From Candidatus Iainarchaeum sp. (lineage in GTDB: Archaea > Iainarchaeota > Iainarchaeia > Iainarchaeales > DTGL01), in the NCBI GenBank assembly GCA_038736825.1, contig JAVYME010000028.1:1-14187 (forward strand): 14,187 nt of DNA, given 5' to 3'. A model generated the notes under the pieces. The model was not told where the DNA came from. It made no database searches and was given only the letters and a program-made list of their open reading frames with translations. A program made the position numbers and the translations under genes. This document shows positions 1 through 13,500 of this stretch, in pieces. The first letter of the stretch is position 1. Each line of letters begins with the position of its first letter.

Positions 1-290
1 GCGGTTTTTTTCCCGAACCCAGCGAGTTTTTCAGCAAAAATCCAAAAATTTTTCCTCAAAAAAGGTTCTCCACCCATTATTGTTATCCTTGAAGTGTTTT
101 TTGAAAGACCCCATAGTTCAATAGTTTTAATATAGTCTTCAAGGATTGCATTCAATTGTTCCAATGAAAGCTCTTTTTCAAAATTTTTTTCAGAATAACA
201 GTGCTTGCATTTCAAGTTGCATTTTTCAGTAATATGCCATTGCAAGTGAAACGATTTTGGAATGTAATTCTCACTATCTTGTTTGACCAT
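1..290 (-). CDS. Radical SAM enzyme, N-terminal ~96 codons only (gene continues past the left window edge)
   Basis: Absent from the supplied ORF track because there is no stop inside the window. Manual translation of the reverse strand from the ATG at complement(288..290) gives MVKQDSENYIPKSFHLQWHITEKCNLKCKHCYSEKNFEKELSLEQLNAILEDYIKTIELWGLSKNTSRITIMGGEPFLRKNFWIFAEKLAGFGKKT... It carries a CX3CX2C motif (CNLKCKHC) and a GGEP SAM-binding motif. It lies 16 bp downstream of the 307..1299 gene on the same strand. Confidence 0.8.
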   Translation of the reverse strand, partial: MVKQDSENYIPKSFHLQWHITEKCNLKCKHCYSEKNFEKELSLEQLNAILEDYIKTIELWGLSKNTSRITIMGGEPFLRKNFWIFAEKLAGFGKKT

Positions 291-306
291 GCTCTTTTCC
301 CAAAAT

Positions 307-1299
307 TTACTGTTCTGGCCTGCCAATTGGGATTCGCCCTCTTGGCGATGGCTCTGCATAATTTAGCAATCCAATTTGGCACATCACTTCATCAAGCCTT
401 GAATATCTTTCCTTGAAGAACCGGCTGGCCAACAAATAATCTTCACTGGAATTTATGGGGCTTTCTTGACCACAAAACTGTTTTAAAAGGTAAAAATTGT
501 AGGCAGCGCAAACATTGCCTTTTTCTTTTTTAGCCATGCTTTCAAAAGACTTGCAAAAAATTGGCACAGCCTCGGTGTTTTTGGGTTTGCCGGCAGGAAC
601 TGACTGCAAAAGCAGCCTCAAAATGGTGGCTTTTTTTTTCATTGATTCCAGTGCTTTGCCTGTCTGGCTCGAATACTCTATGTTTATTGCGAGCACTTTT
701 TCAAAAAGTTTTGGGTTGTATGTTGTGCCTAGCTCTCCATAAACTAATTGGCATATTGTGATTCCTAGCACTGCGGGCAAATCGTTTTCTTCCAGCACTT
801 TTTTTGACTCTATTTGTTGCTCCCAATATTGCATTGCACTGGCAAAAGTCTCTTTGGCAAACAGTTCTGTTTTCAAGCCATCAGTGTTGCCTCTTTCTTT
901 AACAAAATAAGCATATTTGGACATGCAATAAGGCATTAAAACAGTGTAAGGTTCGCATTTTTCCAGTTCTAGGTTGTTGCACTCTTTTGCAAAAAAGCCC
1001 TCGGCAATTTTAGCATCATCCTTGTAGTCTTCGCCTTGAACTTGCAAGCCAAAATCATCTCTTAAGACATTTTTGACCACCCTATACTGGTACCAGCCAT
1101 AAGAAGAGCTTTCCGCCTCTGAAAGAAATGCCTTGGGTTCGAGTTCACTTGAAAAATACTGCTTTAACTCAGAGGCAGAGCTTTGCATTTCTGAAAAAAG
1201 CAGGAAAGGGTATAAGAAAAAAGCGAAAACTGCAAAGACGGCTGCCAGCACTATAGCAATTATTAGAAAATTTTTCCGCTTTGAATGTAGTGGCAGCAT
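307..1299 (-). CDS. Membrane-anchored protein of unknown function (one N-terminal TM helix, helical Cys-containing ectodomain)
   Basis: 330-aa ORF with an ATG start at complement(1297..1299). A KRK stretch is followed by the hydrophobic segment FLIIAIVLAAVFAVFAFFLYPFLLF. I recognise no catalytic motif. It is co-directional with, and 33 bp downstream of, the rSAM/SPASM gene. Confidence 0.6.
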   Translation of the reverse strand: MLPLHSKRKNFLIIAIVLAAVFAVFAFFLYPFLLFSEMQSSASELKQYFSSELEPKAFLSEAESSSYGWYQYRVVKNVLRDDFGLQVQGEDYKDDAKIAEGFFAKECNNLELEKCEPYTVLMPYCMSKYAYFVKERGNTDGLKTELFAKETFASAMQYWEQQIESKKVLEENDLPAVLGITICQLVYGELGTTYNPKLFEKVLAINIEYSSQTGKALESMKKKATILRLLLQSVPAGKPKNTEAVPIFCKSFESMAKKEKGNVCAAYNFYLLKQFCGQESPINSSEDYLLASRFFKERYSRLDEVMCQIGLLNYAEPSPRGRIPIGRPEQ

Positions 1300-1332
1300 A
1301 TCGCAATAGTAACCCCATTCAACTTTTATTTT

Positions 1333-3171
1333 TTATTCCCTCCAAGGGCATTGTGATTTTTTTGAGGTTTTTTTGAATTCAGAATATATCTCGTTTCTGT
1401 CAAAAAATTCGCTTATTTTTGGGCCTTTAACTCCACCACAATATTCAATTTCACCATTTTTTTCTTTGAAGAGTTCAAGGCACTCCAAGCAGTTTTTTGG
1501 AATGAAAAATTCTTCATAGAACTCCTTTTCCTTTTTTGCGTTCGCATCTGTTATTTTGACAGGTCGCGATATCTTGAATATTACCTTGTTTTTCTTCAAT
1601 GAATAAAGAAATGCCTTGAACCGAATTGAATCGCGAATACCAAGCCGGCCCCTGGTAATTGGGCAAAGCACAAAAAGCCTTATTTTTTCCCTGTGTTTTT
1701 TTGACGCCTCAACTATTTTTTTGGCTAGCTTTTCAAGGTCTGCCTTTGCGGGATCAAATTTCAAAAAAACTCCACTGGCTGAGTTCTTGCTGATTTCTGT
1801 TGAGAGTTCGAATTCGCTGAATTGCATGGAATAATAGAGTTTTTCACTCTTTTCCGACAAATAAGGCTTTATTTTTATGACATCGCGTTCCGCCAAATAT
1901 TTCATGAGTTGCAAGGTTTGCGTTTTTCTTTCCAGGCATCGTTCTCTGTCTGGTTTTGCCATATTGTTGTTTTTTTCCAGGTTTTTTAGGGGGCAGCCTC
2001 CCCAGCAAAGCTTGAAATCACAATCATAGCACTCGCTTTTTTTGTAGTAAGAGCGCAATTTTTTGATTTTTTTCCAGTCCATCAAAAATCCCTTTTTTCG
2101 GTTAAAGCAGCCAAGCACAAGTTGTTTCATTCCTTGGTGAATTTTCAGGTCATCTGTGTTTGAGTACATCAGGCAGCCAGAGACAGTTCCATCCGTGCCA
2201 AGGCAAAAATAGTTTCCAACTGAACAATACTGTGTTTTGCCCTTATATTCAAAGTAGTGTTCAACCGCAAGGCGGGATTTTAATCCAAAAGAATCGCAAA
2301 ACTCTTTCAGTTTCATTTGTGAATCTGCGAGCACCGCCCACTTATTGCGCTCTGAAGTTTTTATGAATTCGCAGCCAGCTCCCAGATCGCTAACTGTTGA
2401 GAAAACTATCACTGGGACCTCTAGGTTGTAAAAATATTTGAAGGTTTGCTCTTCTCGACCAACATGGTTTGAGGTAAGCGTGGTTTTTACCATAAATTCC
2501 TTGTTGTTTTTAACCAGTGTTTTTATTGTTTTTTCCACGGTGGCACTGCTCTTTCCGCCATTCCTGAGAGGTCTTTGTCTATTTTGAATTTCAGGCGGGC
2601 CGTCACAGGAAACTTGGAACCTGCCCATTCGATCCGCAATATCGGTTAAAAACTTTGGGTTGGTGGCACCGTTTGTTGAAAATTTGATTCTGGCAATTTT
2701 GAGTTTTTTTTCAATGGAACCCAAAGTTTTTTTCAATAGCGTGGGTTCAGTTGTCTGCTCTCCAGCAGAACTGAACATCACGTGGACTTCCTTGTTTTGT
2801 TGACCAATATATTTAATTCCAGCACTCAAGATTTCCCAATTTGAAGTTTTCTCCTCTCTTTTCTTTTCTTTGCCAAAGCAATATGTGCATCCAAGATTGC
2901 ACTTGCTTGTAATGACTGGCGAAAAAACATTAAAATAGCCTTTTTTGACAAAAGAGGGCTTTTTGTTTTTTGCTAGGAATTTTTTTCCAAGTGCCTCAAA
3001 GGCTTCTTTGTCCATGATGAAAAAGTTGTTTGAATTGCTACAAAAAGCCACCAATCGCCCTTTTTTTTCAAAAAGCAAGTGAAGAAAGGGATTATGTTTT
3101 GCGAAAGCCGCAAATATGTCTCGCTTGCTTTGCAAACAGGCCTGTGTTGCGCCTATTATTTCAACCTTCAA
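1333..3171 (-). CDS. Radical SAM/SPASM-domain peptide maturase (HxsB-like candidate) with a ~190-aa C-terminal extension
   Basis: 612-aa ORF. CX3CX2C motif in SPVITSKCNLGCTYCF. Twitch/SPASM-type auxiliary-cluster motifs: C-x11-G-x4-C (CSVGNYFCLGTDGTVSGC) and CX2CX4CX3C (CYDCDFKLCWGGC), plus a later RERC. The N-terminal ~85 aa before the cluster (LVAFCSNSNNFFIMDKEAFEAL) resembles the substrate-side N-domain common in peptide maturases. The annotated start is TTG (complement of caa at 3169..3171) and the first ATG is codon 53, so the exact start is uncertain. Confidence 0.85.
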   Translation of the reverse strand: MKVEIIGATQACLQSKRDIFAAFAKHNPFLHLLFEKKGRLVAFCSNSNNFFIMDKEAFEALGKKFLAKNKKPSFVKKGYFNVFSPVITSKCNLGCTYCFGKEKKREEKTSNWEILSAGIKYIGQQNKEVHVMFSSAGEQTTEPTLLKKTLGSIEKKLKIARIKFSTNGATNPKFLTDIADRMGRFQVSCDGPPEIQNRQRPLRNGGKSSATVEKTIKTLVKNNKEFMVKTTLTSNHVGREEQTFKYFYNLEVPVIVFSTVSDLGAGCEFIKTSERNKWAVLADSQMKLKEFCDSFGLKSRLAVEHYFEYKGKTQYCSVGNYFCLGTDGTVSGCLMYSNTDDLKIHQGMKQLVLGCFNRKKGFLMDWKKIKKLRSYYKKSECYDCDFKLCWGGCPLKNLEKNNNMAKPDRERCLERKTQTLQLMKYLAERDVIKIKPYLSEKSEKLYYSMQFSEFELSTEISKNSASGVFLKFDPAKADLEKLAKKIVEASKKHREKIRLFVLCPITRGRLGIRDSIRFKAFLYSLKKNKVIFKISRPVKITDANAKKEKEFYEEFFIPKNCLECLELFKEKNGEIEYCGGVKGPKISEFFDRNEIYSEFKKTSKKSQCPWRE

Positions 3172-3237
3172 AACACCACCAAAGCTAATAAATAGTTCTT
3201 TGGCAGCATCGTTTAAAAAGGAAGGTTTCTTACAGCA

Positions 3238-3597
3238 TTAGCTGCAGAAATCTATTGCACAAATCGCCCCGCAACTGTAATGGCTGTAGTGTGATGAGTG
3301 TGAGCTGTGTGATGAGTGTGAGAAGTGTGAGCCGTGTGCTGAGTGTGATGAATGCGAGGAGTGTGATGCGTGGTGTCCGTGTTTTGCAGTGACATTGCCT
3401 GCATTCCAGCTAACACTAAAATAATTTGAGTGTGCGGCTTCGACTTCGGGTAAAAGGTTTAAGATGGAAATCGAGCCCAAAAAGGCACCAATTGAAATCA
3501 TTTTGAATTTTGAAATTCCGCCTTTTTCTTCTATTAAAAAAGAGGACACCTTTCTTTTTATTTCTGGCAGTCTGTTCTTTATTTGTTTTTTCATCAA
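3238..3597 (-). CDS. His-Xaa-Ser repeat peptide (HxsA-like putative RiPP precursor, or a secreted His-rich peptide)
   Basis: 119-aa ORF whose first codon is TTG; the ATG at complement(3592..3594) gives 118 aa. A basic N-terminus (KKQIKNRLPEIKRK) is followed by a signal/TM-like segment MISIGAFLGSISILNLLPEVEA|A. The C-terminal part reads AKHGH-HAS-HSS-HSS-HSA-HGS-HFS-HSS-HSS-HSS-HYS-HYS-CGAICAIDFCS. It sits directly between rSAM genes on the same strand. Confidence 0.8.
   Translation of the reverse strand: MMKKQIKNRLPEIKRKVSSFLIEEKGGISKFKMISIGAFLGSISILNLLPEVEAAHSNYFSVSWNAGNVTAKHGHHASHSSHSSHSAHGSHFSHSSHSSHSSHYSHYSCGAICAIDFCS
3274..3381 (-). repeat. Coding period-3 repeat: HGH plus 11 in-register His-Xaa-Ser/Ala triplets
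   Basis: The plus strand shows imperfect 9/18-bp tandem units (gtgtgatgagtgtgagct x2, then variants). On the coding strand this reads CAC-NNN-TCN/AGC iterated. His is invariant at position 1 of all 12 triplets. Position 3 is Ser in 10 of 11 and Ala in one. Confidence 0.9.
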
Positions 3598-3625
3598 TAA
3601 TACAATCCTTTTAAACTTTAAATAT
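3598..3625 (-). promoter_or_regulatory. Possible internal TATA-like promoter immediately upstream of the HxS peptide gene
   Basis: In minus-strand orientation, right after the upstream stop codon: TAA-atatttaaagtttaaaaggattgtattattg-ATG. The TTTAAAG/TTTAAAA boxes lie about 13-27 nt upstream of the ATG. There is no clear SD sequence. Based on motif resemblance only. Confidence 0.25.
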
Positions 3626-4486
3626 TTATTGTTTTGTGGTGATTTTCCGTATTGGCTTGAATTCTTCTTCTCCGGCTAGTGGTGGATAAGAGCGCCAAAT
3701 CCTGCAACATTCGTTTTTTGCTTTGCAATAAAAGCATTTTTTTGCAAATTTTAGTTCTTTTTCCTGTTTTGTAATGCCTTTGGCGTGTTCCCAGTATTTG
3801 TTGCTTATTGTACACAAAGGGAAGTGGAACATTTTCACTTCCACTTTGTTTTTTTTCAGCACTTCAACTGCTTGTTGAACGAAAGGCACCAAGGTTTTAT
3901 AGTGCACAAAGAGGAGTTGCCGGTTAATAAATGCATTGCCAGTGTATTTTAGGTTGATGAAAACCACTCGAAAAACGCCTTTTAGTTCCCTTGCAATGAA
4001 TTCCGCTGTTTTTGCCAAATCTCGATAATTTTGCTTGCATACCAAGACCCTGACTTCTATTGCGAAACCGAGTTTTTGAAGGTTTTTTATTCCTTGAATT
4101 GTTTCGTTCCAGCTTCCACGGATTCCTGTCAGAAAATCGTGGGCTTTTTCTTCATGGCTTAATAGGGGAATGCCGAAAAAGAGGTTTTTGCCAGAAAATT
4201 TTTTGAATTGCATTGCATATTCTTTTTCTGCAAATTTTCTTCCATTGGTTACAATGAAGATTTCTCTTTCAGGGTTTTGTTCTAGAACAAATTCCACTAT
4301 TTGGGAGAGATTGGGTGAAAGAGTTGGTTCGCCTCCTGTTAGTCCAATGCATTCTTCTTCAGGTGTGCTTTTGATTTTTGCTTTTATTTGGTCTGCTGGC
4401 GGGTTTCCAAGCCAGGGCATCTGTCTTGTATCGTAAATGCAGAAAAGGCATTTGCTATTGCATTGAAATGTCACAGGAATGTCCAT
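3626..4486 (-). CDS. Radical SAM enzyme (small, N-terminal cluster; HxsC-like candidate), paralogue of 4487..5365
   Basis: 286 aa. CX3CX2C motif at residues 9-16 (QCNSKCLFC), GLTGGEPTL, VTNGR, and a C-terminal Cys cluster KKCFYCKAKNECC. Its ATG at complement(4484..4486) directly abuts the upstream stop codon (TAAATG). Confidence 0.85.
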   Translation of the reverse strand: MDIPVTFQCNSKCLFCIYDTRQMPWLGNPPADQIKAKIKSTPEEECIGLTGGEPTLSPNLSQIVEFVLEQNPEREIFIVTNGRKFAEKEYAMQFKKFSGKNLFFGIPLLSHEEKAHDFLTGIRGSWNETIQGIKNLQKLGFAIEVRVLVCKQNYRDLAKTAEFIARELKGVFRVVFINLKYTGNAFINRQLLFVHYKTLVPFVQQAVEVLKKNKVEVKMFHFPLCTISNKYWEHAKGITKQEKELKFAKKCFYCKAKNECCRIWRSYPPLAGEEEFKPIRKITTKQ

Positions 4487-5365
4487 TTATTTTCCCTTTA
4501 TTGCTTTGAATTCGTTTTCTCCTTTTTCTTTTAGGTATGCTTTTTCCACGCCAAAACATTTTTTTTCAAGAATGCATTTTTTGCATTCTGCGAGCTTTTT
4601 TTTGCCTTTCAGGATTTGTTTGTCAAGGGAAGTTTTGCCTTCAAACCAGTAAACCTCTGTTTTCAGTTCGCAAACTGTATTGTCAGCCTTTTGCGGGATA
4701 ATGCAAGGCGGCACATTGAGCGCCCAAACCCCGGCACTGCCTTTTTCAGCAATTTCAATGGCTTTCAAGAGATAGGGTGCTGTTTTGGAATACGCTGGCA
4801 CCAAGTGTTTGTTTTGTGAAAGGTTTCCGTCAATGCTTGGAAAGATGAGGCAAAACATTTTTGGCTTGAATGCCAAAACTTTTTTCACTATTGCTGGCAA
4901 TTGTTTGAAGTTGAGGGCATTTATTACAATGTTTGCCCTTATTTCCCCCCCTTTTTCCTTGAAATTTTTAATGCCTTGCATTAATTCTGAAAAACAGCCG
5001 TTCACTTGCGTCAGAAAATCGTGTGTTTCCTTGTCCGCGCCATGAATGGAAAAAATCGCGCTGTTTAATCCGCTTTCAAGCATTTGTTCTGTAAAATTTT
5101 TGTCTGAAAACATTCTACCATTGGTTGTAACGGAAATTTTTTGAAAGCCTTGTTCTTTTGCAAAGTGGACTATTTCAAATATGTCTTTTCGTATGGTGGG
5201 TTCTCCACCTGTAAAGCAAATTTCTTCAGCTCGACCTTTGGCTGAAATAACTTCTTTTTTGACTTGCTCTAATTGCTTGAAATTCCTTGACTTGTGTACA
5301 GAGCAAAAAAGACAGTTATTGTTGCAAGCAGCGCCAAGCACAATTTCAATTTTTGCCAGTCTCAT
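4487..5365 (-). CDS. Radical SAM enzyme (small, N-terminal cluster; HxsC-like candidate), paralogue of 3626..4486
   Basis: 292 aa with an ATG start. CX3CX2C motif (ACNNNCLFC), CFTGGEPTI, TTNGR, HDFLT, QGIKN (the last three are shared with the paralogue), and a C-terminal ECKKCILEKKC motif. Confidence 0.85.
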   Translation of the reverse strand: MRLAKIEIVLGAACNNNCLFCSVHKSRNFKQLEQVKKEVISAKGRAEEICFTGGEPTIRKDIFEIVHFAKEQGFQKISVTTNGRMFSDKNFTEQMLESGLNSAIFSIHGADKETHDFLTQVNGCFSELMQGIKNFKEKGGEIRANIVINALNFKQLPAIVKKVLAFKPKMFCLIFPSIDGNLSQNKHLVPAYSKTAPYLLKAIEIAEKGSAGVWALNVPPCIIPQKADNTVCELKTEVYWFEGKTSLDKQILKGKKKLAECKKCILEKKCFGVEKAYLKEKGENEFKAIKGK

Positions 5366-5399
5366 GAAATATTTGGCGCATTAATGGTTTTTAATTGGT

Positions 5400-5774
5400 T
5401 TATTCGCCAAGCTGTCTTGCCACAATTTCAAGGCATTGGTTCCTTATGCCTTCTTCGGTTACTTTGTTGCATAAGGCTTTGTCGTTATTCAAAACACCAA
5501 AGCAGTAATTCTTTATGTTTGCGTTGTAAATGTAATTGCAATAATTGTTGTTTCTTGCTTCATAGGCTTCCTGGAAAACGCACCAATCAGATTTTCCGCT
5601 TGCAAGTCCGCTGCACTTGCTCAAATCAAAGCTTGACTCGAGTTGTGGGCAATAAGTATTTGTATTACAATCTGGCTTAGCTTGCAATCCTAAAAAAAAC
5701 CCAGCCAAAAAGAAAACTATTGACGTTAGAACTAAAATTGCAAATCTCTTAAAATCAAAAGCAATTTTTTCCAT
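5400..5774 (-). CDS. Small membrane-anchored/secreted Cys-rich protein, unknown function
   Basis: 124 aa with an ATG start. Hydrophobic segment FAILVLTSIVFFLAGFFLGL, then 10 Cys with a recurring C-x(7-12)-C spacing (YCNYIYNANIKNYCFGVLNNDKALCNKVTEEGIRNQC). It is the first gene of the minus-strand block, 34 bp upstream of the first rSAM gene. Confidence 0.6.
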   Translation of the reverse strand: MEKIAFDFKRFAILVLTSIVFFLAGFFLGLQAKPDCNTNTYCPQLESSFDLSKCSGLASGKSDWCVFQEAYEARNNNYCNYIYNANIKNYCFGVLNNDKALCNKVTEEGIRNQCLEIVARQLGE

Positions 5775-5834
5775 GAAAACCCTATCCTATATGTGTTGTT
5801 TTCCTTTTTAATCTTTTTCAGCCACTTTATTTCC
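5775..5834. promoter_or_regulatory. Divergent intergenic region between the rSAM operon (minus) and the GYPECC gene (plus)
   Basis: It is the only non-coding DNA between the divergently oriented genes, provided the plus-strand gene starts at the ATG at 5835. No specific motif was confidently identified. Confidence 0.3.
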
Positions 5835-6851
5835 ATGCCTTTTGCTGAAAAATCCATTGCAGAGGCAATGGCAAGGCTTTCCAGTGAAAGCCGCGCTTTT
5901 TCTGACAAACAACGACTGAAAAAAGGAAAGTTTTATTATCCGCCATGCATTAAAGGCCATTTTTCTTTGCTCGAACTTTTGGCGCTTAAAAACGGCTTAA
6001 AGCCAGCGGTAAGCAATAAGGTGCCATTTACGCCTGAAGCCTGGCTGGCACTAAAAAAAGGGATTAATGAAATGGGTTTTCTTTGCGGGCACACTAGATT
6101 CAAGTACCTTATAAACACAATCCAAGACCTTTGCGAGCCAATTCCTCTTGATGACCCGCGCCTTGGGGAAGTTTATGCGATTGCAGCCAAAGACTTTGAA
6201 ACCATTAAAAGGGCAGCGGATGCCTATGCCAACGACACAACTGAATTTGGTAGGCTAATGGGTTATCCTGAATGCTGTCTGGCGTTCGGAAAGAGCTTGT
6301 GCAATAATGTTGGAATTAAAAGCAAAGTAGAGCAAGACTATGTTTGGTCGCGCATTTATTTTCGCTCTTATCGCAATTCAACGAACTTTTCCAAGTGGTT
6401 GAATGTTTATTCTGGCTTTGCTTTGATTCATCACATTCCATGCCATTTGAATTGCCCGGAAAGCAAGAAATACGCTCAAACCTTGTACGGTTTGCTGGAA
6501 AAGGAAAACGCAAAACTGGCAAAATTGTATGATTTTTTCATGCACTTGCCAGTATTGTTTTGGAATTGTGCGGACTCGATTTTATTCCAAGGCGAGTTTG
6601 AAAAGGGAGTTTTTCACTACTGGGATTGTTTTCCAAAAATCTCTTCAGATTCATTTTATGTTTCCGCACCAGACTTTTCATTAGCCAAAAGGCTTTCCGG
6701 CTATGCTGAATTAGTCAAAAAAGGCAACAGCCTTAAATTATCAGATAAGTGCATTGGTGTTTTCAAGGACAACAAAAAGATTGGCATTATTCCAAAACAA
6801 TTTGAATTTGAATGCATTCTGGTAAAACCTGACACTGACTTGTCAGAGTAA
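5793..6851 (+). CDS. G[YF]PECC / H-x-PC-x3-C family protein (uncharacterised, putative metal- or Fe-S-binding), divergent paralogue 1
   Basis: The 352-aa track ORF starts at GTG 5793, and the first ATG at 5835 (MPFAEKS...) is the more likely start. Motifs shared with 9469..10362 and 7624..8488: FSLLELLALKNGLKPAVS, GRLMGYPECCLAFGK, HHIPCHLNCPESKKY. Confidence 0.75.
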   Translation: MLFSFLIFFSHFISMPFAEKSIAEAMARLSSESRAFSDKQRLKKGKFYYPPCIKGHFSLLELLALKNGLKPAVSNKVPFTPEAWLALKKGINEMGFLCGHTRFKYLINTIQDLCEPIPLDDPRLGEVYAIAAKDFETIKRAADAYANDTTEFGRLMGYPECCLAFGKSLCNNVGIKSKVEQDYVWSRIYFRSYRNSTNFSKWLNVYSGFALIHHIPCHLNCPESKKYAQTLYGLLEKENAKLAKLYDFFMHLPVLFWNCADSILFQGEFEKGVFHYWDCFPKISSDSFYVSAPDFSLAKRLSGYAELVKKGNSLKLSDKCIGVFKDNKKIGIIPKQFEFECILVKPDTDLSE

Positions 6852-6853
6852 GC

Positions 6854-7075
6854 CTATTTGGAAAGCGCTATTACATTGTTTGAAAACCAGCCAGCAAGTT
6901 CTTCCAAGTCAGTTCCTTTTTCTGGAAAAAATTCAATAAAGGTGAAATGCCCTTTTTTTGATTTTTTGAATTTGATGTTTTTTGGAACAATTTCAAGTGC
7001 TTTTTGCAGGGCTTCTTCAAAATAAATGCCTTCCCTGAATTTCATTCGCACGCTTTTGCGTTTTATTTCAATCAA
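6854..7075 (-). CDS. Small HxsD-like protein (short paralogue of the N-domain of 7079..7567)
   Basis: 73 aa from TTG, or 63 aa from the ATG at complement(7043..7045) (MKFREGIYFEEALQKA...). ...HFTFIEFFPEKGTDLEELAGWFSNNVIAL parallels ...ILVTIKARDKKRGAKALEEIANHFNNELINY of the upstream gene. It lies 3 nt after that gene's stop codon. Confidence 0.5.
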   Translation of the reverse strand: MIEIKRKSVRMKFREGIYFEEALQKALEIVPKNIKFKKSKKGHFTFIEFFPEKGTDLEELAGWFSNNVIALSK

Positions 7076-7078
7076 TGC

Positions 7079-7567
7079 TTACACCTTTGGCTTTTTCAAG
7101 CCCTTGGCTTTTTTTGGAGTCCATGGTTCTGCAATTCCTTCAGGGTCCTTCAAGTAAAGGTCTTCGTCTTCATTTTCAGGCATTCGAATTTTTTTTGCTT
7201 TTTCTTCAAGCACTGGCTCTAAAGGGTTTTCTATTGTTTGCTCGCTTGAAAGGTTTGTTGCCAGTGCTCGCTGGATTATTGCCTCTCTTATTGCTTGGTT
7301 CCTTGCAGCTTGAACTGCATAAACGGAATAATTGATTAATTCGTTGTTGAAATGGTTTGCTATTTCCTCCAACGCCTTTGCTCCTCGTTTTTTGTCTCGC
7401 GCTTTTATTGTCACCAAGATTTCTTTTGCAGGATCTCCGTCCAAGAAAAAATAGGCTTTGTCAAGCAAGACATATGCTGCAGAATAAACAACTTCAAGCG
7501 TGAACACTTTTGGGTTCACTGAAACAATTGCTTTGCCATGTTTTGGAAAGAGCTTAACGTGCTCCAT
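7079..7567 (-). CDS. HxsD-like small protein with an acidic/basic C-terminal tail
   Basis: 162 aa with an ATG start. The pattern VFTLEVVYSAAYVLLDKAYFFLDGD...ILVTIKARD...FNNELINYSVYAVQAARNQAIREAIIQRAL resembles, from memory, the LLNDYxLRE-type signature of the His-Xaa-Ser system protein HxsD. Not verified by HMM search. Confidence 0.5.
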   Translation of the reverse strand: MEHVKLFPKHGKAIVSVNPKVFTLEVVYSAAYVLLDKAYFFLDGDPAKEILVTIKARDKKRGAKALEEIANHFNNELINYSVYAVQAARNQAIREAIIQRALATNLSSEQTIENPLEPVLEEKAKKIRMPENEDEDLYLKDPEGIAEPWTPKKAKGLKKPKV

Positions 7568-7623: not shown

Positions 7624-8488
7624 TTATTCAAATCTGAGGATTTTGGCCGGTTTTTTTATTTCTAGTATTTTTTTATCGCTTTTGAATACTTGGAATCTTA
7701 TATCATCCGTAATAACCTTATCGCCTATTTTTATTTTTTCAAGCACTTTTTTTGGGGTTCTGGTGGGAAACTCAAGAACTGAATCGTATGTGGCTTCGTT
7801 TTCAATTTGATCTTTGCGACTTTCATTAAGAATCACAAAGTCGAGTTGGTTGAAGAAAACAAATGTTTTTTTTAAAGTGTTCTCTATTTCTTTAGCGAAC
7901 TCCGGCATTTCATTTTGCAAAACGTTTAGTTTTTTTCCTGATTTTTATGCTTTCTTTACAGTTAAATGAGCATGGAAAGTGAAAGATAAGAAACATTGCT
8001 TTTTTCCAAATTTCAAAAAATCGTTCTTTATCCCAGCCAGAGCCAATGTTTTTTGAAATCGCTGAGGCTAAGATGTTGGTTTAAAAAGGAAATGGTTTTT
8101 CAGAATTTTCAGCGATTGACCATTCGATTGCTTTGCCCTCTTTGCCAGCCAGGGCGTGCTTTTTTATGCTGCGCACGCAGCATTCAGGGTAACCAAAAAG
8201 TCGGCCGATGTGTTCTCGGTTTTCTGTTTGCTCAGCCAAAACCATTTCTTTAAGTAGGGCAGTGTCTTTTGAGATGTAGAGCACTTTGTTTTTTCCAAGC
8301 CCATGATAGTTTTGGAAATAGTGGATTTTGGCATAAATGTTTTGTCTTGCACATTCTTCGAGGAAGAGATCAATTTGGGTTTGATGTTGAGAACTAAGTA
8401 TAACTCTTGAAATTGGCTTGATATCATACTTTATTCCAAAAAACTCTAAAGGAGTAAATCCGATATTTAATATTCTGGACTCAACCAT
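7624..8488 (-). pseudogene. Disrupted G[YF]PECC family paralogue (in-frame TAA plus 1-nt frameshift)
   Basis: Track ORFs 8081..8488 (N-terminal part, ...GRLFGYPECCVRSIKK...) and 7624..7920 (C-terminal part) align collinearly with the N- and C-terminal parts of the intact 297-aa paralogue. After the TAA at 8081..8083 the same frame continues TNILASAISKNIGSGWDKERFFEIWKKAMFLIFHFPCSFNCKESIKIRKKTKRFAK* (stop at 7910..7912). Removing one base of the T7 run at 7930..7936 restores ...RKKLNVLQNEMPEFAKEIENTLKK, which matches ...GKKYKRVLEKEAPLLAEQAKNALKK. The repaired length of ~287 aa compares with 284 aa for the intact copy. Confidence 0.75.
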
Positions 8489-8539: not shown

Positions 8540-9448
8540 TCACCTTTCTTTCATCATTTTTTTGATCTCTTTAACCATTTTTTTAATATCTTTAGCTTGT
8601 TTTTTTCCAGCACTAGCAAGCGATAAAAACTGGCAAAATTTGAACAAAAGATAGGTTTTTTTTTCAAAAGCGTAATTTTCTCCAATTTTGCCCCCCATTT
8701 CAGCATAAGTTTTCAAAAAATGTTTTGAAAGGTCTGGTTTTACTGCTTTCAATGCGTTTTCAGTGATTGCAACATCAAAAAGGCAGTGACCCAAAAAGGC
8801 GTTTTTCCAGTCAATAACTGCATTGATTTTTCTGGATTTGTTGACTAAAATATTTTCAAGCCACAAGTCTCCATGACAAATGCAAGGATTAACCTTTTCA
8901 GGCAATGGGGTGTTATAAACAAAGAAAAGGATTTTTTTCGCAAAACTTTCTTTCACAATTCCATTTTTCACTGCAATTTGAAGATTTATTTCAATGTTTT
9001 TTCTGACAAACGAACCCCAGCTTTGAGTTCTGTCTTTCCATTCCAAATCTGTTTTTTTGGCTTTGTAGTTGGGCTTTACAGAGTGAAGTTTTGCAAGAAT
9101 TTCAGCAATTTGTTCAATCAAAAATATTCTTTCGGGTTCGCTCATTTTGGCCCATTGCGCTGTAACAGGTGTTCCTTCAACGAATTCAAATTCCAGCAAG
9201 CAAAAATCCGGGGATTTTTTTAAAGAAAAGATTTTTGGCACTGGAAGGTGGTTCTCGAATGCAAATTGCTGGAATGCTTTAGCGCGCAACACTTTTTTTT
9301 TGTCAAACCAAATCCAGCAAACCCTTTTTTTTCCATTTGGCAAAAACACTTTAAACATTGAATTGCTTTTTTTAAGTGGAAAAACTCGGCTTTTTTTTCC
9401 AAAGGCTTTTTTTGCAAAAACAATTTTGCTTTCCAAAGAGTTCATCAT
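8540..9448 (-). CDS. Aminoglycoside-phosphotransferase / choline-kinase fold (protein-kinase-like) phosphotransferase
   Basis: 302 aa with an ATG start. Catalytic-loop signature CHGDLWLENILV and the downstream VIDWKNAFLGHCLFDVA (the HGDLxxxN ... iDWe...D pattern of the APH family). The substrate is not inferable from sequence. Confidence 0.8.
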   Translation of the reverse strand: MMNSLESKIVFAKKAFGKKSRVFPLKKSNSMFKVFLPNGKKRVCWIWFDKKKVLRAKAFQQFAFENHLPVPKIFSLKKSPDFCLLEFEFVEGTPVTAQWAKMSEPERIFLIEQIAEILAKLHSVKPNYKAKKTDLEWKDRTQSWGSFVRKNIEINLQIAVKNGIVKESFAKKILFFVYNTPLPEKVNPCICHGDLWLENILVNKSRKINAVIDWKNAFLGHCLFDVAITENALKAVKPDLSKHFLKTYAEMGGKIGENYAFEKKTYLLFKFCQFLSLASAGKKQAKDIKKMVKEIKKMMKER

Positions 9449-9468: not shown

Positions 9469-10362
9469 TTATTTTTTTAATTCCAAAATTTTTTGCCTGT
9501 TTTTAAAGACAGCGAGTGCTCCATTTTCCGCTTTAATGCGATTGCCTTGCCTGATTTTTTCCAAAATTTTTTTCGAAGTCGTAGTGGGGAATTCAAAAAC
9601 CGATTCATAGAATGCCTCGTTTTCGCTTTTGCCTTCAATGGCATCATTTAATAGAACAAAATTGAAACTTCCAAAATAAACCATTGTTTTCTTTAAAGCG
9701 TTTTTCGCTTGCTCTGCCAACAAAGGCGCCTCTTTTTCCAAAACTCTTTTGTATTTTTTTCCCATTTCAATGCTTTTATTGCAGTTAAAAGAACACGGAA
9801 TATGGTAAATGAAATAAAAGCTTTTGTTTCGTGCCTCTTTCAGGCAATTGCATTCAAGAGCATTTTTTGGCTTGAAATCCGAGGCAGTGTAAAGAACGAA
9901 ATTGTTGTAAAAAGACAAAGGCTTTTTGGAATTTTTTAATACTTCAAATGCAATATTTGACCGGTTTTCCGCCTTTCCGAAAAAAAACTCAATACAGCAT
10001 TCTGGAAAGCCAAAAATCCGCCCAATTTTTTTCACATCACGCGCTTTTTCCGCTTCAATTAATTCTTCAATGGTTTTCATGCGTTTGCAAACATAAAGCA
10101 TTGTGGTGTCGGGCCAAGCCCCCGCAAAATTTTCAAAATATTCCAGTTGCCATTGCAAGCCAAGCCTTTCACATTTTTCCCTGAACTTTTTAAACCGCGT
10201 TCCAAAAGATGCTTCTTTTGGATTAACACTCATTCTAGAAATAGGCTTAACTCCATGCACTAATCCCAAAATTTCCAGTGGCGAAAAACCCATTTCGTCA
10301 CGCCAAGAGAAACAGTTTGCCATAACCGAAAACTCTATCAAACCAATTAAAAAAATAACCAA
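9469..10362 (-). CDS. G[YF]PECC / H-x-PC-x3-C family protein, intact paralogue 2
   Basis: The 297-aa track ORF starts at TTG. The ATG at complement(10321..10323) (MANCFSWRDEMGFSPLEILGLVHGVKPISR, 284 aa) aligns with the start of the pseudogene copy. Motifs: GRIFGFPECCIEFFFGK and YHIPCSFNCNKSIEMGKKY. Confidence 0.8.
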   Translation of the reverse strand: MVIFLIGLIEFSVMANCFSWRDEMGFSPLEILGLVHGVKPISRMSVNPKEASFGTRFKKFREKCERLGLQWQLEYFENFAGAWPDTTMLYVCKRMKTIEELIEAEKARDVKKIGRIFGFPECCIEFFFGKAENRSNIAFEVLKNSKKPLSFYNNFVLYTASDFKPKNALECNCLKEARNKSFYFIYHIPCSFNCNKSIEMGKKYKRVLEKEAPLLAEQAKNALKKTMVYFGSFNFVLLNDAIEGKSENEAFYESVFEFPTTTSKKILEKIRQGNRIKAENGALAVFKNRQKILELKK

Positions 10363-10484: not shown

Positions 10485-10568
10485 ATGAAACAACAAAATA
10501 GGCAGCACCCTTCAAGGATTTTGTTGTTTATCGCTTTAGCCTTGCTTGCGCCATTTTATTCCTTTGCC
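10485..10568 (+). other. Predicted Sec signal peptide of the large surface protein
   Basis: n-region KQQNRQHPSR, h-region ILLFIALALLAPF, c-region YSFA, with likely cleavage before QTCTG. Confidence 0.6.
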
Positions 10569-13500
10569 CAAACTTGCACTGGCGGTCTTTCTGGGAGCAA
10601 CCTACAAAACTGCACTGGAACAGACTATTCTCCTTGCCATAAATGTGATGTTAACGACATGCAGTTCGAAATAAGGGCACCAGATGGCGTGACAACTAGT
10701 GGTTGGCAGACAATGACTTATTCTACAGGTTCGGGCACATGCTCTGCAGGTTGCGCTGACGAAACTTGGACCAAAAGCTATGGTTATACTTTTTGCCCAC
10801 AAGAAGGCACTTATTCAGCTAGAATAAAAGCTGGCGCTCAAAACAGTTCATCTTATGGTTGGGAGACAAGCGATTGGAACACTTCTTTTTACACTGTAAA
10901 CTGGGATTCTTCTCAAGGTTGGTGCACTTGCAAAACTGGGAGCAGTGCAAACTGGTTTGCAACAGTTTCAGGTGGCAGCAACGGCCAGTGCTGTGGGGAT
11001 GACGGCGCAAACGACAATTTCTATTACCATAGTGCAGAGCCCTCCACTGCAACCTCTCTGGATTGCACTCGTTGCTTGAATGGAACAAAATATGGTCCAA
11101 TAACATTGTATGGCAATGGTTATTTGTCTGGTTCTGGTACCTCTCGAACTTGTTATTATGGAGACATTAATTGCACTGCCGGTTCTGCTGAAAGTGGCAC
11201 TAGCACAATAGTGTATGGCTATGGCCATTGGTCCGGTTCTAGTCCAATAACTGATACAAGCGGGGTTTGCTATTATGGAACGCCTTCTTGTGGGGATGGA
11301 TACTATTCACATGGTTCCTTTGGCACTTATTATGGCAATGGTTATACAAATGGCAATCCTACAACGGATACAAGCAGTCTCTGTTATTATGGGGATATTT
11401 CTTGTTCTAATGGTTTTGCTTCCAATGGTGCCTCAACAACAGTTTATGGCAACGGTTTTGTCTCAGGCACAACATGCTATTATGGCAACTGGGTTTGTGC
11501 AAATGATACTGCAAGCAATGGGGCTAGTTGCACTCTTGCATGTGGTGGTCTTGGCACAAGTTGTTGTCCAACTCAAAACATTTTCCGCAACACAATAACT
11601 TGCTCTGAAAGCGGTTGTGGTTATAGTGATCATGATAGGGATTCTGGAGAAAGCTATTGCATTTCCAACGCGGGTGGTTGCATGGCATTTGTTTGGGATT
11701 CGTTGGGCAACAAGTGCTGTGGTGATGATGGTGCAGGCGACAACTTTTGCACTTTGGGTGGTGGTTCCTGCATAAATGGTTCTTGGAATGCAAACCATTG
11801 TTTTGACGGCATAAAAAATTGTGATGAAACTGCAGTTGACTGCGGTGGAAGCGATTGCTCGGCATGCGTGTCAGATAACAATCCGCCAACAACAACACAT
11901 GATGCCAACCAGGAATGGCAGACAACAAATCAAACTATTACTTTGATGTGCAGTGACGGTTCAGAGGTTGGATCCACAGGTTGTGCTCACACTTATTATT
12001 GCATTGATGATTCTAACACTTGCAATCCCACAATTGAAGGAACCACAATTCAAGTAAGTTGTATTGTTGGCGATGTTAACCGTGTTTTTGTGAGGTTTTA
12101 TTCTATTGACAATGCTAACAATGCAGAGCAAGTAAAAAGTGTTTTTATTAGAATTGACAAGCAAAACCCTGTCACAACTGCAATTGCTCCAACTGATTGG
12201 CAGGATGCAAATACAGCAATAACCCTTTCATGTTCTGATGGCGCTGGGGCTGGTTGTTTTGCTGTCTATTTCCGTGTTGATTCTAATCCGTCAAAAAATG
12301 TTTCTTTTGGTTCTTGGACCAGCTATGAGGCTCCAATAATTTTTTCATCTGATGGAAACTATTTGATAGAGTTTTATTCAAAAGATAATGTGTTTAACAC
12401 TGAAACAACCAATGTGGCGCTTGTTTTAATCGATAAACGCTTTGCTTCTCTGGGTAATGAAAGCCTTTATTCTAGTTATACAGATTATAATGGCGTCATA
12501 GTTGTTCCAATTACAGTGGATGGCAACTACCGAATTGACTATAATTCAACTGATATTATTGGCAACATTGAACAGATTCGCACTGGTTGGGCAGCATTGG
12601 ATAAAACACCGCCTTCAACAACAAATGACTTGAACACTGCTTGGCAGAGACAGAATTTTTCAATAACGCTTTCATGCAGTGATGCAACGTCGGGTTGTGC
12701 TCTCACGCGCTATAGAATTGATTTGGATGACAGCGAAAATATTTCAATGGGTGCTTGGCAAAATTACTCTTCACCCATAAACATTTCCTCAGATGGGAAC
12801 TGGGCAATTGACTATAATTCAATGGATGTTGCAGGCATGCGCGAAAGCATTCGCACGATTTATGCCCTTCTTGACAAAACCGCTCCAATAGTAAGTCATG
12901 ATGCAAACACGGCTTGGGTGAACGAAGATCAGGTAGTGCATTTAACTTCAGTTGATACAACATCTGGCATAAATGCAACTTATTATTGTGTTTCTGATGC
13001 AAACAATTGTATTCCCTCTACTAGTGGCAATATGGTGAATGTTACTTGTACTGCCAATTCAATATGTCACAACTATGTGAGATATTATGCTATTGATAAT
13101 GCAGGCAATCAAAGCAATGTTAGCGCCACAAGCGTTATCAGAATAGATAAAGAAAATCCTCTTACAACAACTGATGCTAATACTCTTTGCCAGAAAACAG
13201 ACCAAAACATCGTGATTTCTTCAAGTGATGGTTCTGGTTCTGGAATTGCTGGCACTTATTATTGTGTTGATGACTCTAATTCTTGCACTCCAAGCACGAG
13301 CGGCACTATAGTGACTGTTTCTTGTGCGACTGGTTCAACTTGTCAAAAGTTTGTTCGGTATCGCTCTCAAGACATTGCTGGCAATACTGAAAGCATTCGC
13401 TCTATTTTGTTAACAATTGACAAGCAGGCGCCTACAACAACAGATGATGCAAACAGTCAATGGCAGAGTGCAAACCAAAGCATTACTTTGACTCCTACTG

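Follow-up and report, generated by a model that had tools for sequence, protein, structure and literature searches.

What is made by a group of radical S-adenosylmethionine (SAM) enzymes encoded around a short peptide rich in His-Ser repeats, in an archaeon of the DPANN group? This question is raised by a locus on contig JAVYME010000028.1, a stretch of 14,187 nt from a Diapherotrites (DPANN) metagenome-assembled genome (MAG), which we analysed over its whole length and refer to as the window. A preliminary description, made from the sequence alone, had seen in this locus a divergent and enlarged relative of the His-Xaa-Ser (Hxs, also written HXS) system in a reduced-genome, uncultivated lineage, and the source of the contig agrees with the latter.

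The Hxs system was defined via comparative genomics by Haft & Basu in 2011 (as cited in PMC9062424). It was purely bioinformatic until 2026, and the preliminary description still treated it as such, which is out of date: the system is now known to act against a broad spectrum of phages, and is described as in essence restricted to Pseudomonadota. The Escherichia coli system blocks phage DNA entry (Li et al., Nat Commun 2026, PMC13128918). In this system HxsB, HxsC and HxsD must be present for a non-canonical N-terminal cleavage of the effector, for a change of +8 Da in SHRSS, within an HxS repeat, and for export, HxsC binds HxsD, and the protease which cleaves HxsA is unknown (PMC13128918). 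The statement that the product chemistry was uncharacterised has thus been overtaken for canonical HXS as far as the mapped +8 Da is concerned, and holds insofar as the chemistry itself is still unsolved (PMC13128918). Of the HXS systems reported, 99.7% were found in Pseudomonadota, with the gene order D-B-C-A, and archaeal forms were not described (PMC13128918). In the literature we found no paper on archaeal, DPANN or candidate phyla radiation (CPR) Hxs variants and none describing the HxsA3/A4, HxsC4 and HxsD_rel variant types, and the literature on DUF483 and on DPANN together with radical SAM contained nothing on this system.

Results

Identity of the locus

We found that the locus is very probably a DPANN-archaeal variant of the Hxs system. 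The idea of a divergent, enlarged Hxs-like system was supported by an HxsD above its curated cutoff, by a radical SAM enzyme (g3) whose best family is HxsC and by a precursor peptide which matches only HxsA3, HxsA4 and HxsA2. The genes lie in the order HxsD, HxsD_rel, an inverted DUF483-like gene, g1, g2, the HxsC-like g3, the peptide, g5, g6 and g7. The last seven of these form a run on the minus strand, all in the same direction, in which every open reading frame (ORF) was found as first described (ORF map; left-end gene read manually). The gaps from g1 to g7 are 34, 0, 31 (28 if a TTG start is used for the peptide), 66, 33 and 16 bp, matching the earlier figures of 0-34 bp, with 66 bp between the peptide and g5. 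The stop codon of g2 abuts the start of g3 (TAAATG; junction sequence GGAAAATAAATGGAC). For comparison we used related loci (labelled L001 onwards) from NCBI contigs (L001-L003) and 80 metagenome loci, whose six-frame ORFs were searched with the proteins of the window and of its relatives; component counts were taken among the 33 loci of ≥ 12 kb.

The HxsD gene (7079..7567, minus strand) encodes 162 aa which match TIGR03976 at 55.5 bits (cutoff 50; E 5.5e-15), and the protein carries the PGAP name 'His-Xaa-Ser system protein HxsD' in GenBank (MEM0360633.1). Homologues hold the same position in L001, L002, L006, L007, L025, L044, L067 and L086. BLASTP against the Klebsiella HxsD gave no significant similarity, so the window HxsD is detected by profile only. 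An HxsD-related protein of 73 aa (6854..7075, minus strand), encoded 3 bp downstream, has HxsD_rel (NF038315) as its sole match at 19.6 bits against a cutoff of 41, and its positional equivalents in L002 (43.4 bits), L025 (51.3 bits) and L086 (71.4 bits) pass this cutoff. Both genes had been missed by the preliminary description, which bounded the locus at 1-5774; since they lie at 6854-7567, the system reaches past 5774.

The short HxsC-type radical SAM enzyme g3 (3626..4486, minus strand, 286 aa; 'radical SAM protein' in GenBank) matches HxsC (TIGR03977) at 207.8 bits (E 1.5e-61) over positions 31-289 of the 292 in the profile, its next-best family being HxsC4 at 90.9 bits. As the HxsC cutoff is 267.9 bits, g3 is a homologue of HxsC and not an equivalog by the curated threshold. 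It is 30% identical to Klebsiella HxsC over 266 aa (E 1e-43) and is without the ~90-aa N-terminus of HxsC. In 29 homologues neither the CX3CX2C motif nor a C-terminal C251/C254/C260 motif varies, and > 400 homologues were found at E ≤ 1e-10, the named ones all belonging to DPANN (Diapherotrites, Aenigmarchaeota, Nanohaloarchaeota and Anstonellales). A tblastn search of plasmids with g3 gave 437 records, and the annotated ones among the matches listed were all hxsC; a single-protein query scan of genome contigs returned only an unrelated Desulfobacteraceae radical SAM protein with 22% identity. The neighbouring g2 (4487..5365, minus strand, 292 aa) is an HxsC paralogue with best NCBIfam matches to HxsC4 (131.3 bits, cutoff 500) and HxsC (110 bits) and a Pfam Radical_SAM match of 78.9 bits, and its orthologues (> 200 bits) lie directly upstream of the g3 orthologue in L001, L002, L003, L010 and L016. 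The HxsC4 cutoff of 500 was passed by none of the HxsC paralogues scored (maximum 162 bits).

The window HxsD also has a C-terminal extension of ~55 aa which is absent from the 90-aa canonical (Klebsiella) HxsD, and this extra acidic/basic tail (7079-7240; …MPENEDEDLYLKDPEGIAEPWTPKKAKGLKKPKV) is kept in L001 (DPEGIAKPWTP motif). A longer HxsD next to a g3 without the ~90-aa N-terminus may represent redistribution of an interaction domain.

The precursor peptide gene (3238..3594, minus strand) encodes 118 aa from the ATG start given in GenBank; the 119 aa reported earlier need a TTG start one codon upstream. A leader (residues 1-26, with P10, K13, F19 and G25) is followed by a hydrophobic segment (residues 32-48, ending VEAA/H), by 12 in-register H-x-S/A/H triplets (residues 72-107; nt 3274-3381) and by the extra Cys tail noted in the preliminary description, CGAICAIDFCS (residues 108-118, 3 Cys). 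In order, the triplets are HGH, HAS, HSS, HSS, HSA, HGS, HFS, HSS, HSS, HSS, HYS and HYS, and the 11 of these 12 with the form H-x-S/A agree with the number first counted. When the mature region was shuffled 100,000 times with its composition preserved, this number was never reached and the maximum was 6. The underlying DNA is a period-9/27 tandem repeat at 3288-3372, and the mature peptide contains 14 His and 20 Ser with hardly any charged residues. In NCBIfam the peptide matches only HxsA3 (34.9 bits, cutoff 65), HxsA4 (31.8 bits, cutoff 55) and HxsA2, all sub-threshold, its leader aligning to HxsA3 profile positions 2-79 and HxsA4 positions 2-90. HxsA itself (TIGR03979, cutoff 121.65 bits) gave no match at E ≤ 0.01, the repeat motif and an export-type hydrophobic segment being present.

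Phmmer with the peptide gave 219 cluster representatives at E ≤ 1e-3 among 1.84 billion. Homologous peptides, which GenBank records name 'hypothetical protein' like the window peptide itself, were found in ~20 loci; in their alignment the leader residues P10, K13, F19 and G25 are invariant, the hydrophobic segment ends at an AxA-like site followed by H-(T/S)-N, and an HxS array of 4 to 39 triplets precedes a variable tail. Named homologues belong to Altiarchaeota and Anstonellales, with a 497-aa fusion in the CPR bacterium Ca. Nealsonbacteria (closed 689-kb genome). The HxsA4 cutoff of 55 is reached by two relatives, the peptides of L041 (61.8 bits) and L086 (P0312, 55.2 bits).

Two further observations concern the peptide gene. 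In L038 (575-2065) and in P0312 a C-terminal domain of ~350 aa without family match is joined to the leader, HxS array and Cys motif, so that the HxS 'peptide' can form the N-terminal part of a larger exported protein, like E. coli HxsA. In the window, a TATA-like A/T-rich element, ATATTTAAAG, lies ~30 nt upstream of the peptide ATG, right after the g3 stop (3595-3625, by eye only), and a T5 run lies ~20 nt past the peptide stop, inside the unusually long 66-bp gap (3172-3237, by eye only). They would be consistent with a precursor gene transcribed separately and at a high level, with partial termination, as is seen in many clusters for ribosomally synthesised and post-translationally modified peptides (RiPPs).

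We also considered whether the radical SAM genes could be housekeeping genes for MoaA-, NirJ- or AhbD-like cofactor enzymes, with the His-rich ORF a chance low-complexity frame. Secondary matches of g2 and g3 to MoaA, AhbC/AhbD and NirJ models do exist, but these scored 45-85 bits against cutoffs of 230-650 and always ranked under HxsC/HxsC4; in the hidden Markov model (HMM) check which the preliminary description had suggested, no radical SAM protein scored best to a housekeeping family in NCBIfam. The peptide ORF and its leader motif are also conserved across the loci and cluster representatives above, and HxsD is present. This reading, to which we give next to no probability, is effectively refuted by the family scores, by HxsD and by the conservation of the peptide.

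Distribution and gene content of related loci

Dozens of DPANN loci carry this variant, and so does one closed CPR bacterial genome. Synteny with the window is seen in the closest clade (L001, L002, L006 and L007), in the order giant surface protein (divergent), HxsD, HxsD_rel, HxsC paralogue, DUF483-like gene, g2 and g3 orthologues, HxS peptide, and g5 and g6 homologues. The preliminary description had allowed that homologous loci might have no His-rich peptide next to them; adjacent HxS-repeat peptides were found, and synteny with a homologous HxS peptide is kept in L001, L002, L005, L006, L007, L025 and L028.

Extra HxsC paralogues were found in all 33 of the long loci, an A24-like peptidase in 24, a DUF483-like protein in 14, HxsD in 11, an HxS peptide in 10, a g1-type Cys-rich membrane protein in 9 and HxsB in 8. 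The total number of radical SAM genes per long locus is 2-9. In the window Pfam Radical_SAM is above threshold in g2, g3, g5 and g7, so the earlier count of four stands. Four are not peculiar to this contig but typical of the type, as related loci carry 2-9.

True HxsB proteins (TIGR03978, cutoff 370) are present among the relatives, with scores of 429 bits in L002, 419 in L025, 485 in L044, 505 in L067 and 491 in L086. In L025, L044, L067 and the CPR locus L086 the order is HxsD, HxsD_rel, HxsB and an HxsA-like gene, and in L002 HxsB adjoins an A24 peptidase ~4 kb beyond g6. L086 (CP179887.1, Ca. Nealsonbacteria, closed 689-kb genome, 1-21494) belongs to the same variant and encodes DUF483, HxsD, HxsD_rel, HxsB, an HxsA4-type leader joined to a domain of ~350 aa, several HxsC4-like radical SAM enzymes, PMT_2, GT2 and a B12-type radical SAM protein. 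It is found directly downstream of a bacterial cluster for type IV pili (PilO, PilB, PilT, PilC, pilin and PilD). The ~54% identity of its leader to the archaeal peptide implies a transfer between domains.

Several results count against placing the locus in the Hxs system. HxsD alone passes its curated cutoff in the window, with g3, the peptide, g2 and HxsD_rel all sub-threshold; no protein in the 14-kb window qualifies as HxsB at the TIGR03978 cutoff of 370; and HxsD and peptide genes are within reach in only 10-11 of the 33 long HxsC-paralogue loci. HxsB may lie beyond the contig end.

The membrane partners mentioned in the preliminary description were found in g1, with one transmembrane segment, and in g6, with an N-terminal one. 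The Cys-rich g1 (5400..5774, minus strand, 124 aa, 9 Cys) has no Pfam or NCBIfam match, but an iterative HMM search placed relatives of it in at least 25 loci, often beside the peptide gene, and in L044, L067, L056 and L047 the relative adjoins the HxsA-like gene. The membrane-anchored g6 (307..1299, minus strand, 330 aa), also without a family match in NCBIfam or Pfam, is clade-specific, with homologues only in L001, L002, L006, L007 and L024, downstream of the peptide or g5. The fourth radical SAM enzyme, g7 (290 to < 1, minus strand), continues off the contig; its visible 96 aa include the CX3CX2C motif and match Pfam Radical_SAM (31.4 bits) and Fer4_12 (25.7 bits). Relatives of g7 scored 85-106 bits in L003, L005, L006, L007 and L010, and the L003 copy has 380 aa with a SPASM domain.

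PMT_2-type (GT-C) glycosyltransferases were found in 12 related loci (e.g. L001, L003, L010, L014, L026, L030, L031, L033, L062 and L086) and GT2 glycosyltransferases in 5; the window has none of them. Because these enzymes recur in related loci, O-glycosylation of the exported Ser-rich repeats is possible.

A second type of maturase and the Cys tail

The radical SAM/SPASM peptide maturase g5 (1333..3171, minus strand, 612 aa; TIGR04085 and Radical_SAM) passes the SPASM cutoff (TIGR04085, 28.4 bits, cutoff 27). Its best NCBIfam match is the ranthipeptide maturase PapB (NF047865) at 71.9 bits, which does not pass the cutoff of 340, and it scored 48.5 bits against HxsB (TIGR03978, cutoff 370), matching Klebsiella HxsB over the radical SAM core only, with 24% identity. 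The family has ~25 members of 600-640 aa, only in Diapherotrites-like lineages, in which the radical SAM cysteines C91, C95 and C98 and the SPASM cysteines C316, C333, C381, C384, C393 and C412 are invariant. An extra C-terminal domain of ~180 aa (~residues 433-612) has three invariant cysteines (C561, C564 and C578); hhalign found no relationship between the g5 family and the DUF483-like family. In the AlphaFold2 (AF2) model of g5 (pLDDT 89.6, pTM 0.90), the top PDB folds by Foldseek were CteB (5why/5wgg, E 4e-17) and then anSME, ChlB, TigE, SkfB and SuiB.

We rejected the possibility that g5 is a diverged HxsB. L025 holds both an HxsB and a g5 homologue (469 bits to g5), and g5 is therefore an additional enzyme and not the HxsB orthologue.

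A g5-type enzyme and a peptide tail with 2-4 Cys occur together in 8 of 8 loci (the window, L001, L002, L005, L006, L007, L025 and L028). Where no g5-type enzyme is nearby, most peptides have W or Y as the last residue and 0-1 Cys. Exceptions are L067 (HCNCSSWN), where two other PapB-like radical SAM/SPASM genes are present, and L038 (2 Cys), a 3.2-kb contig which is too short to score. Judged by this pattern of sequences, g5 probably acts on the Cys tail. The pattern supports a modular model, in which the HxS array would be the target of HxsB/HxsC/HxsD and the Cys tail that of g5, probably with formation of thioethers; as the loci are phylogenetically related, it falls short of proof, and this must be set against the model.

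The relationship of g5 to thioether-forming enzymes raises the alternative that the product is a secreted antimicrobial RiPP, a bacteriocin similar to sactipeptides or ranthipeptides in which the His/Ser repeats are merely spacer or carrier. The closest folds and families of g5 are indeed the thioether-forming CteB, PapB and SCIFF maturase, and the peptide is built, like a RiPP precursor, from a leader and a core. However, the ORF map, NCBIfam and Pfam revealed no bacteriocin-typical transporter, protease or immunity genes in the window, it is the HxS array and not the Cys tail which is conserved across all relatives, and HxsD and HxsC tie the locus to a protein-effector system. We consider an antimicrobial product improbable.

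A candidate leader peptidase

An HxsC-type gene is directly followed by an A24-like gene in 26 of 62 cases. The A24-like genes matched Pfam Peptidase_A24 at 20.8-35 bits (threshold 26.5), with one Arc_PepC match of 40 bits, and the radical SAM enzymes beside them again have HxsC as best match (174-193 bits). In L059-L080, L044, L054 and others (e.g. L076 9995-12048), a short HxsC-type radical SAM gene is followed by an A24 membrane protein, usually with 3-6 HxsC paralogues upstream. A regex search for hidden leader-motif peptides in loci without an HxS peptide found none, so many of these HxsC-paralogue/A24 arrays are without a visible substrate within 10 kb.

These peptidases suggest that the peptide could be a prepilin-like substrate, with an A24 (class III signal) peptidase cutting after G25 and the helix anchoring the HxS/Cys region or entering a type IV filament. 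The succession of a basic leader, the invariant Gly and a hydrophobic segment, which resembles that of prepilins, would suit this, as would the A24-like peptidases, some with Arc_PepC, directly after HxsC in the 26 of 62 loci, the type IV filament genes which flank L001, L002 and L086, i.e. in both domains, and the non-canonical cleavage of E. coli HxsA by an unknown protease. On the other hand, there are 6-7 polar/basic residues (e.g. GISKFK) between G25 and the hydrophobic stretch, which in true prepilins starts at +1, and a good AxA-type signal-peptidase site follows the hydrophobic segment. Moreover, no A24 gene lies within the window, and several of the A24 matches are under the Pfam threshold (20.8-26.1 vs 26.5 bits). 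A prepilin-like substrate is in our view unlikely. A general type IV pilus link was rejected, as pilus genes are adjacent in only 3-4 loci.

Neighbouring genes

The window holds three DUF483-like paralogues within 5 kb (5793-6851, 9469-10362 and a broken copy at 7624-8488) with the common motif GYPECC...NS...HxPCxLxC. The first (5793..6851, plus strand) has 352 aa by ORF, is annotated with 338 aa from a start at 5835 and scored 21.2 bits against Pfam DUF483 (cutoff 25). It is inverted in the window and co-directional in relatives, and 14 of the 33 long loci have DUF483-like genes lying between HxsC paralogues; this protein is a probable accessory of the system. Its AF2 model (pLDDT 88, pTM 0.86) gave no Foldseek PDB fold at E ≤ 1e-3, and the protein has no sequence match in the PDB. 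On the basis of the model, the family may represent an unsolved fold with a 4-Cys/His metal site.

The disrupted paralogue (7624..8488, minus strand) is a neighbour whose membership in the system is uncertain. Its GYPECC part ends at an in-frame TAA, HFPCSFNC follows in the same frame and the C-terminal part is in another frame; this copy is either a pseudogene or a MAG error. The third paralogue, also a neighbour (9469..10362, minus strand, 297 aa), scored 26.9 bits against Pfam DUF483 (cutoff 25). Between these two sits an APH-family kinase (8540..9448, minus strand, Pfam APH 78 bits), among whose weak matches is LxmK, a class V lanthipeptide kinase (19.8 bits). The position of a small-molecule or Ser kinase beside a Ser-rich peptide is suggestive, but the gene is not conserved in related loci, where the sole other APH kinase match is a faint one in L077.

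At the right end lies a partial giant secreted protein of > 1,234 aa (10485..14186, plus strand), divergent from the Hxs genes. It has a signal peptide and at least six OmpL47-type beta-barrel domains (NF047446, 178.5 bits), and C-Y-Y-G motifs are repeated in a region rich in Cys, Gly and Tyr. Homologues hold the equivalent position in L001, L002, L006 and L007. The contig stops inside a 273-nt tandem domain array (the copy at 14017-14187 is 93% identical to 13471-13641), and its right end is therefore probably an assembly break. Rfam and tRNA scans of the window gave no matches.

Discussion

Proposed mechanism and possible functions

The locus is a real, conserved and so far undescribed enlarged version of the known Hxs system. 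In the mechanism that we propose, the N-terminal leader (P10, K13, F19 and G25) would hold the precursor on cytoplasmic maturases, where the HxS array would be modified by g3 with HxsD, and probably by g2, in the way of HxsC-HxsD in E. coli; g7 may also be among these leader-guided enzymes, and HxsB, if the genome has one, would be encoded beyond the contig. The Cys tail would be cross-linked by g5, most likely through thioether bonds. The hydrophobic segment would carry the product across or into the membrane, and the leader would be cut at the AxA-like site (VEA/A or AA/H), or at G25 by an A24-type peptidase such as those encoded next to HxsC in many relatives. From these modification and export steps, the product would be a cross-linked His-rich envelope peptide.

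As to the end function, homology to the E. coli HXS system makes an envelope-level antiviral barrier like that of E. coli the most likely single role, and we put it forward tentatively. A number of observations speak against it. The repeats are without Lys or Arg (x = S/G/A/F/Y; net K+R 1, D+E 1) and no peptidoglycan-binding or other further domain was found in the peptide with NCBIfam or Pfam, so the electrostatic DNA-binding proposed for E. coli HxsA is not obviously transferable. The flanks encode cell-surface biogenesis (the giant OmpL47-domain protein, type IV pilus, PMT_2 and GT2) and not a defence island, and PADLOC found no defence family, only weak generic viperin (pVip) cross-matches to the radical SAM cores.

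A surface or metal-binding role is nearly as likely as the antiviral one. The same machinery could make a cell-surface factor, i.e. a His-rich metal-binding (Zn/Ni/Cu) or adhesive peptide, possibly Ser O-glycosylated, for host attachment or metal capture in the episymbiotic life of DPANN and CPR cells; we regard this as possible, with the chances against it. It would be consistent with the syntenic giant secreted protein with six OmpL47-type domains in L001, L002, L006 and L007, with the T2SSE/T2SSF pilus genes in L001, L002 and the CPR locus L086 and with the PMT_2 glycosyltransferases in 12 loci. The near-chargeless mature peptide with its 14 His and 20 Ser would also suit it, as would a His right after the predicted cleavage site in most homologues (HTN/HSN) and a weak match of one peptide homologue to the zinc-uptake protein ZrgA. 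It should be noted, however, that the only Hxs system tested is antiviral (PMC13128918) and that there is no experimental precedent for metals or adhesion, that pilus genes are adjacent in only the 3-4 loci already mentioned, and that 4-9 radical SAM enzymes are not obviously needed for a simple metal-binding tail.

In its furthest form, our proposal is that a multi-enzyme Hxs variant (2-9 radical SAM enzymes, HxsD, HxsD_rel, DUF483 proteins of a fold absent from the PDB, a Cys-rich membrane partner and a dedicated A24 leader peptidase next to HxsC) has passed horizontally among ultra-small episymbionts of both domains, with DPANN archaea and at least one CPR bacterium as its hosts, and builds a heavily cross-linked exported His-Ser peptide. 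This would be either the first archaeal envelope antiviral barrier or a pilus-associated surface module in which A24 is the missing HxsA protease. Taken as a whole, this proposal is doubtful.

A much larger, modular version of Hxs is thus widespread in DPANN archaea and reaches CPR bacteria. With its HxsC paralogues, its loci with and without HxsB and its separate Cys-tail enzyme, the variant represents a set of natural 'dissections' of the pathway, and it offers a candidate leader peptidase for the unsolved processing step. Its short peptide substrates may be more tractable than E. coli HxsA, which is insoluble. Should the antiviral role extend to the variant, it would be a new class of archaeal envelope immunity in minimal-genome organisms; otherwise, it would be a new family of surface peptides which episymbionts tailor with radical SAM enzymes.

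Comparison with known systems

We compared the window system with thioether-forming enzymes and with known Hxs systems. The enzyme g5 has the same fold as CteB, PapB, SCIFF maturase and anSME (TM-score 0.66-0.70 on the CteB target) and shares with the CteB/PapB type the CX3CX2C motif, the SPASM cysteine set and a neighbouring Cys-containing core peptide. It is only 17-20% identical to the thioether radical SAM/SPASM maturases, has its own C-terminal domain of ~180 aa, and its substrate additionally carries an HxS array handled by other enzymes. The NCBIfam variants HxsA3 (NF038309), HxsA4 (NF038313), HxsC4 (NF038332) and HxsD_rel (NF038315) are matched by window proteins, all below the cutoffs.

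The canonical HXS system (TIGR03976-03979) differs from the window in several respects. Its order is hxsD-hxsB-hxsC-hxsA (Klebsiella locus L085), whereas the window has another order and no HxsB, and its hosts are bacterial, whereas the host of the window system is an archaeon without peptidoglycan. Klebsiella HxsA has 211 aa, a plain Sec signal, five basic HRSHSSHRSHSSHRSS repeats (HRSHSSHRS) and a peptidoglycan-binding domain; the window peptide, in contrast, has 118 aa, 12 repeats, a long conserved leader before the hydrophobic segment and a Cys-rich tail. The window HxsC-type enzyme is without the ~90-aa N-terminus and the window HxsD has 162 aa instead of 90. In addition, the window encodes an HxsC paralogue, g5, g7, HxsD_rel, the Cys-rich membrane protein and DUF483-like proteins, to which relatives add the A24 peptidase. 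The likeness to canonical HXS lies in HxsD, which is common to both with the window copy above its cutoff, in g3, which is homologous to HxsC over the radical SAM core and the C-terminal Cys motif, and in substrates which both have tandem His-x-Ser repeats and an N-terminal export signal, putative in the window peptide. True HxsB is found in the syntenic relatives of the window, and the cytoplasmic maturation followed by export of the canonical system is presumed for the window system as well.

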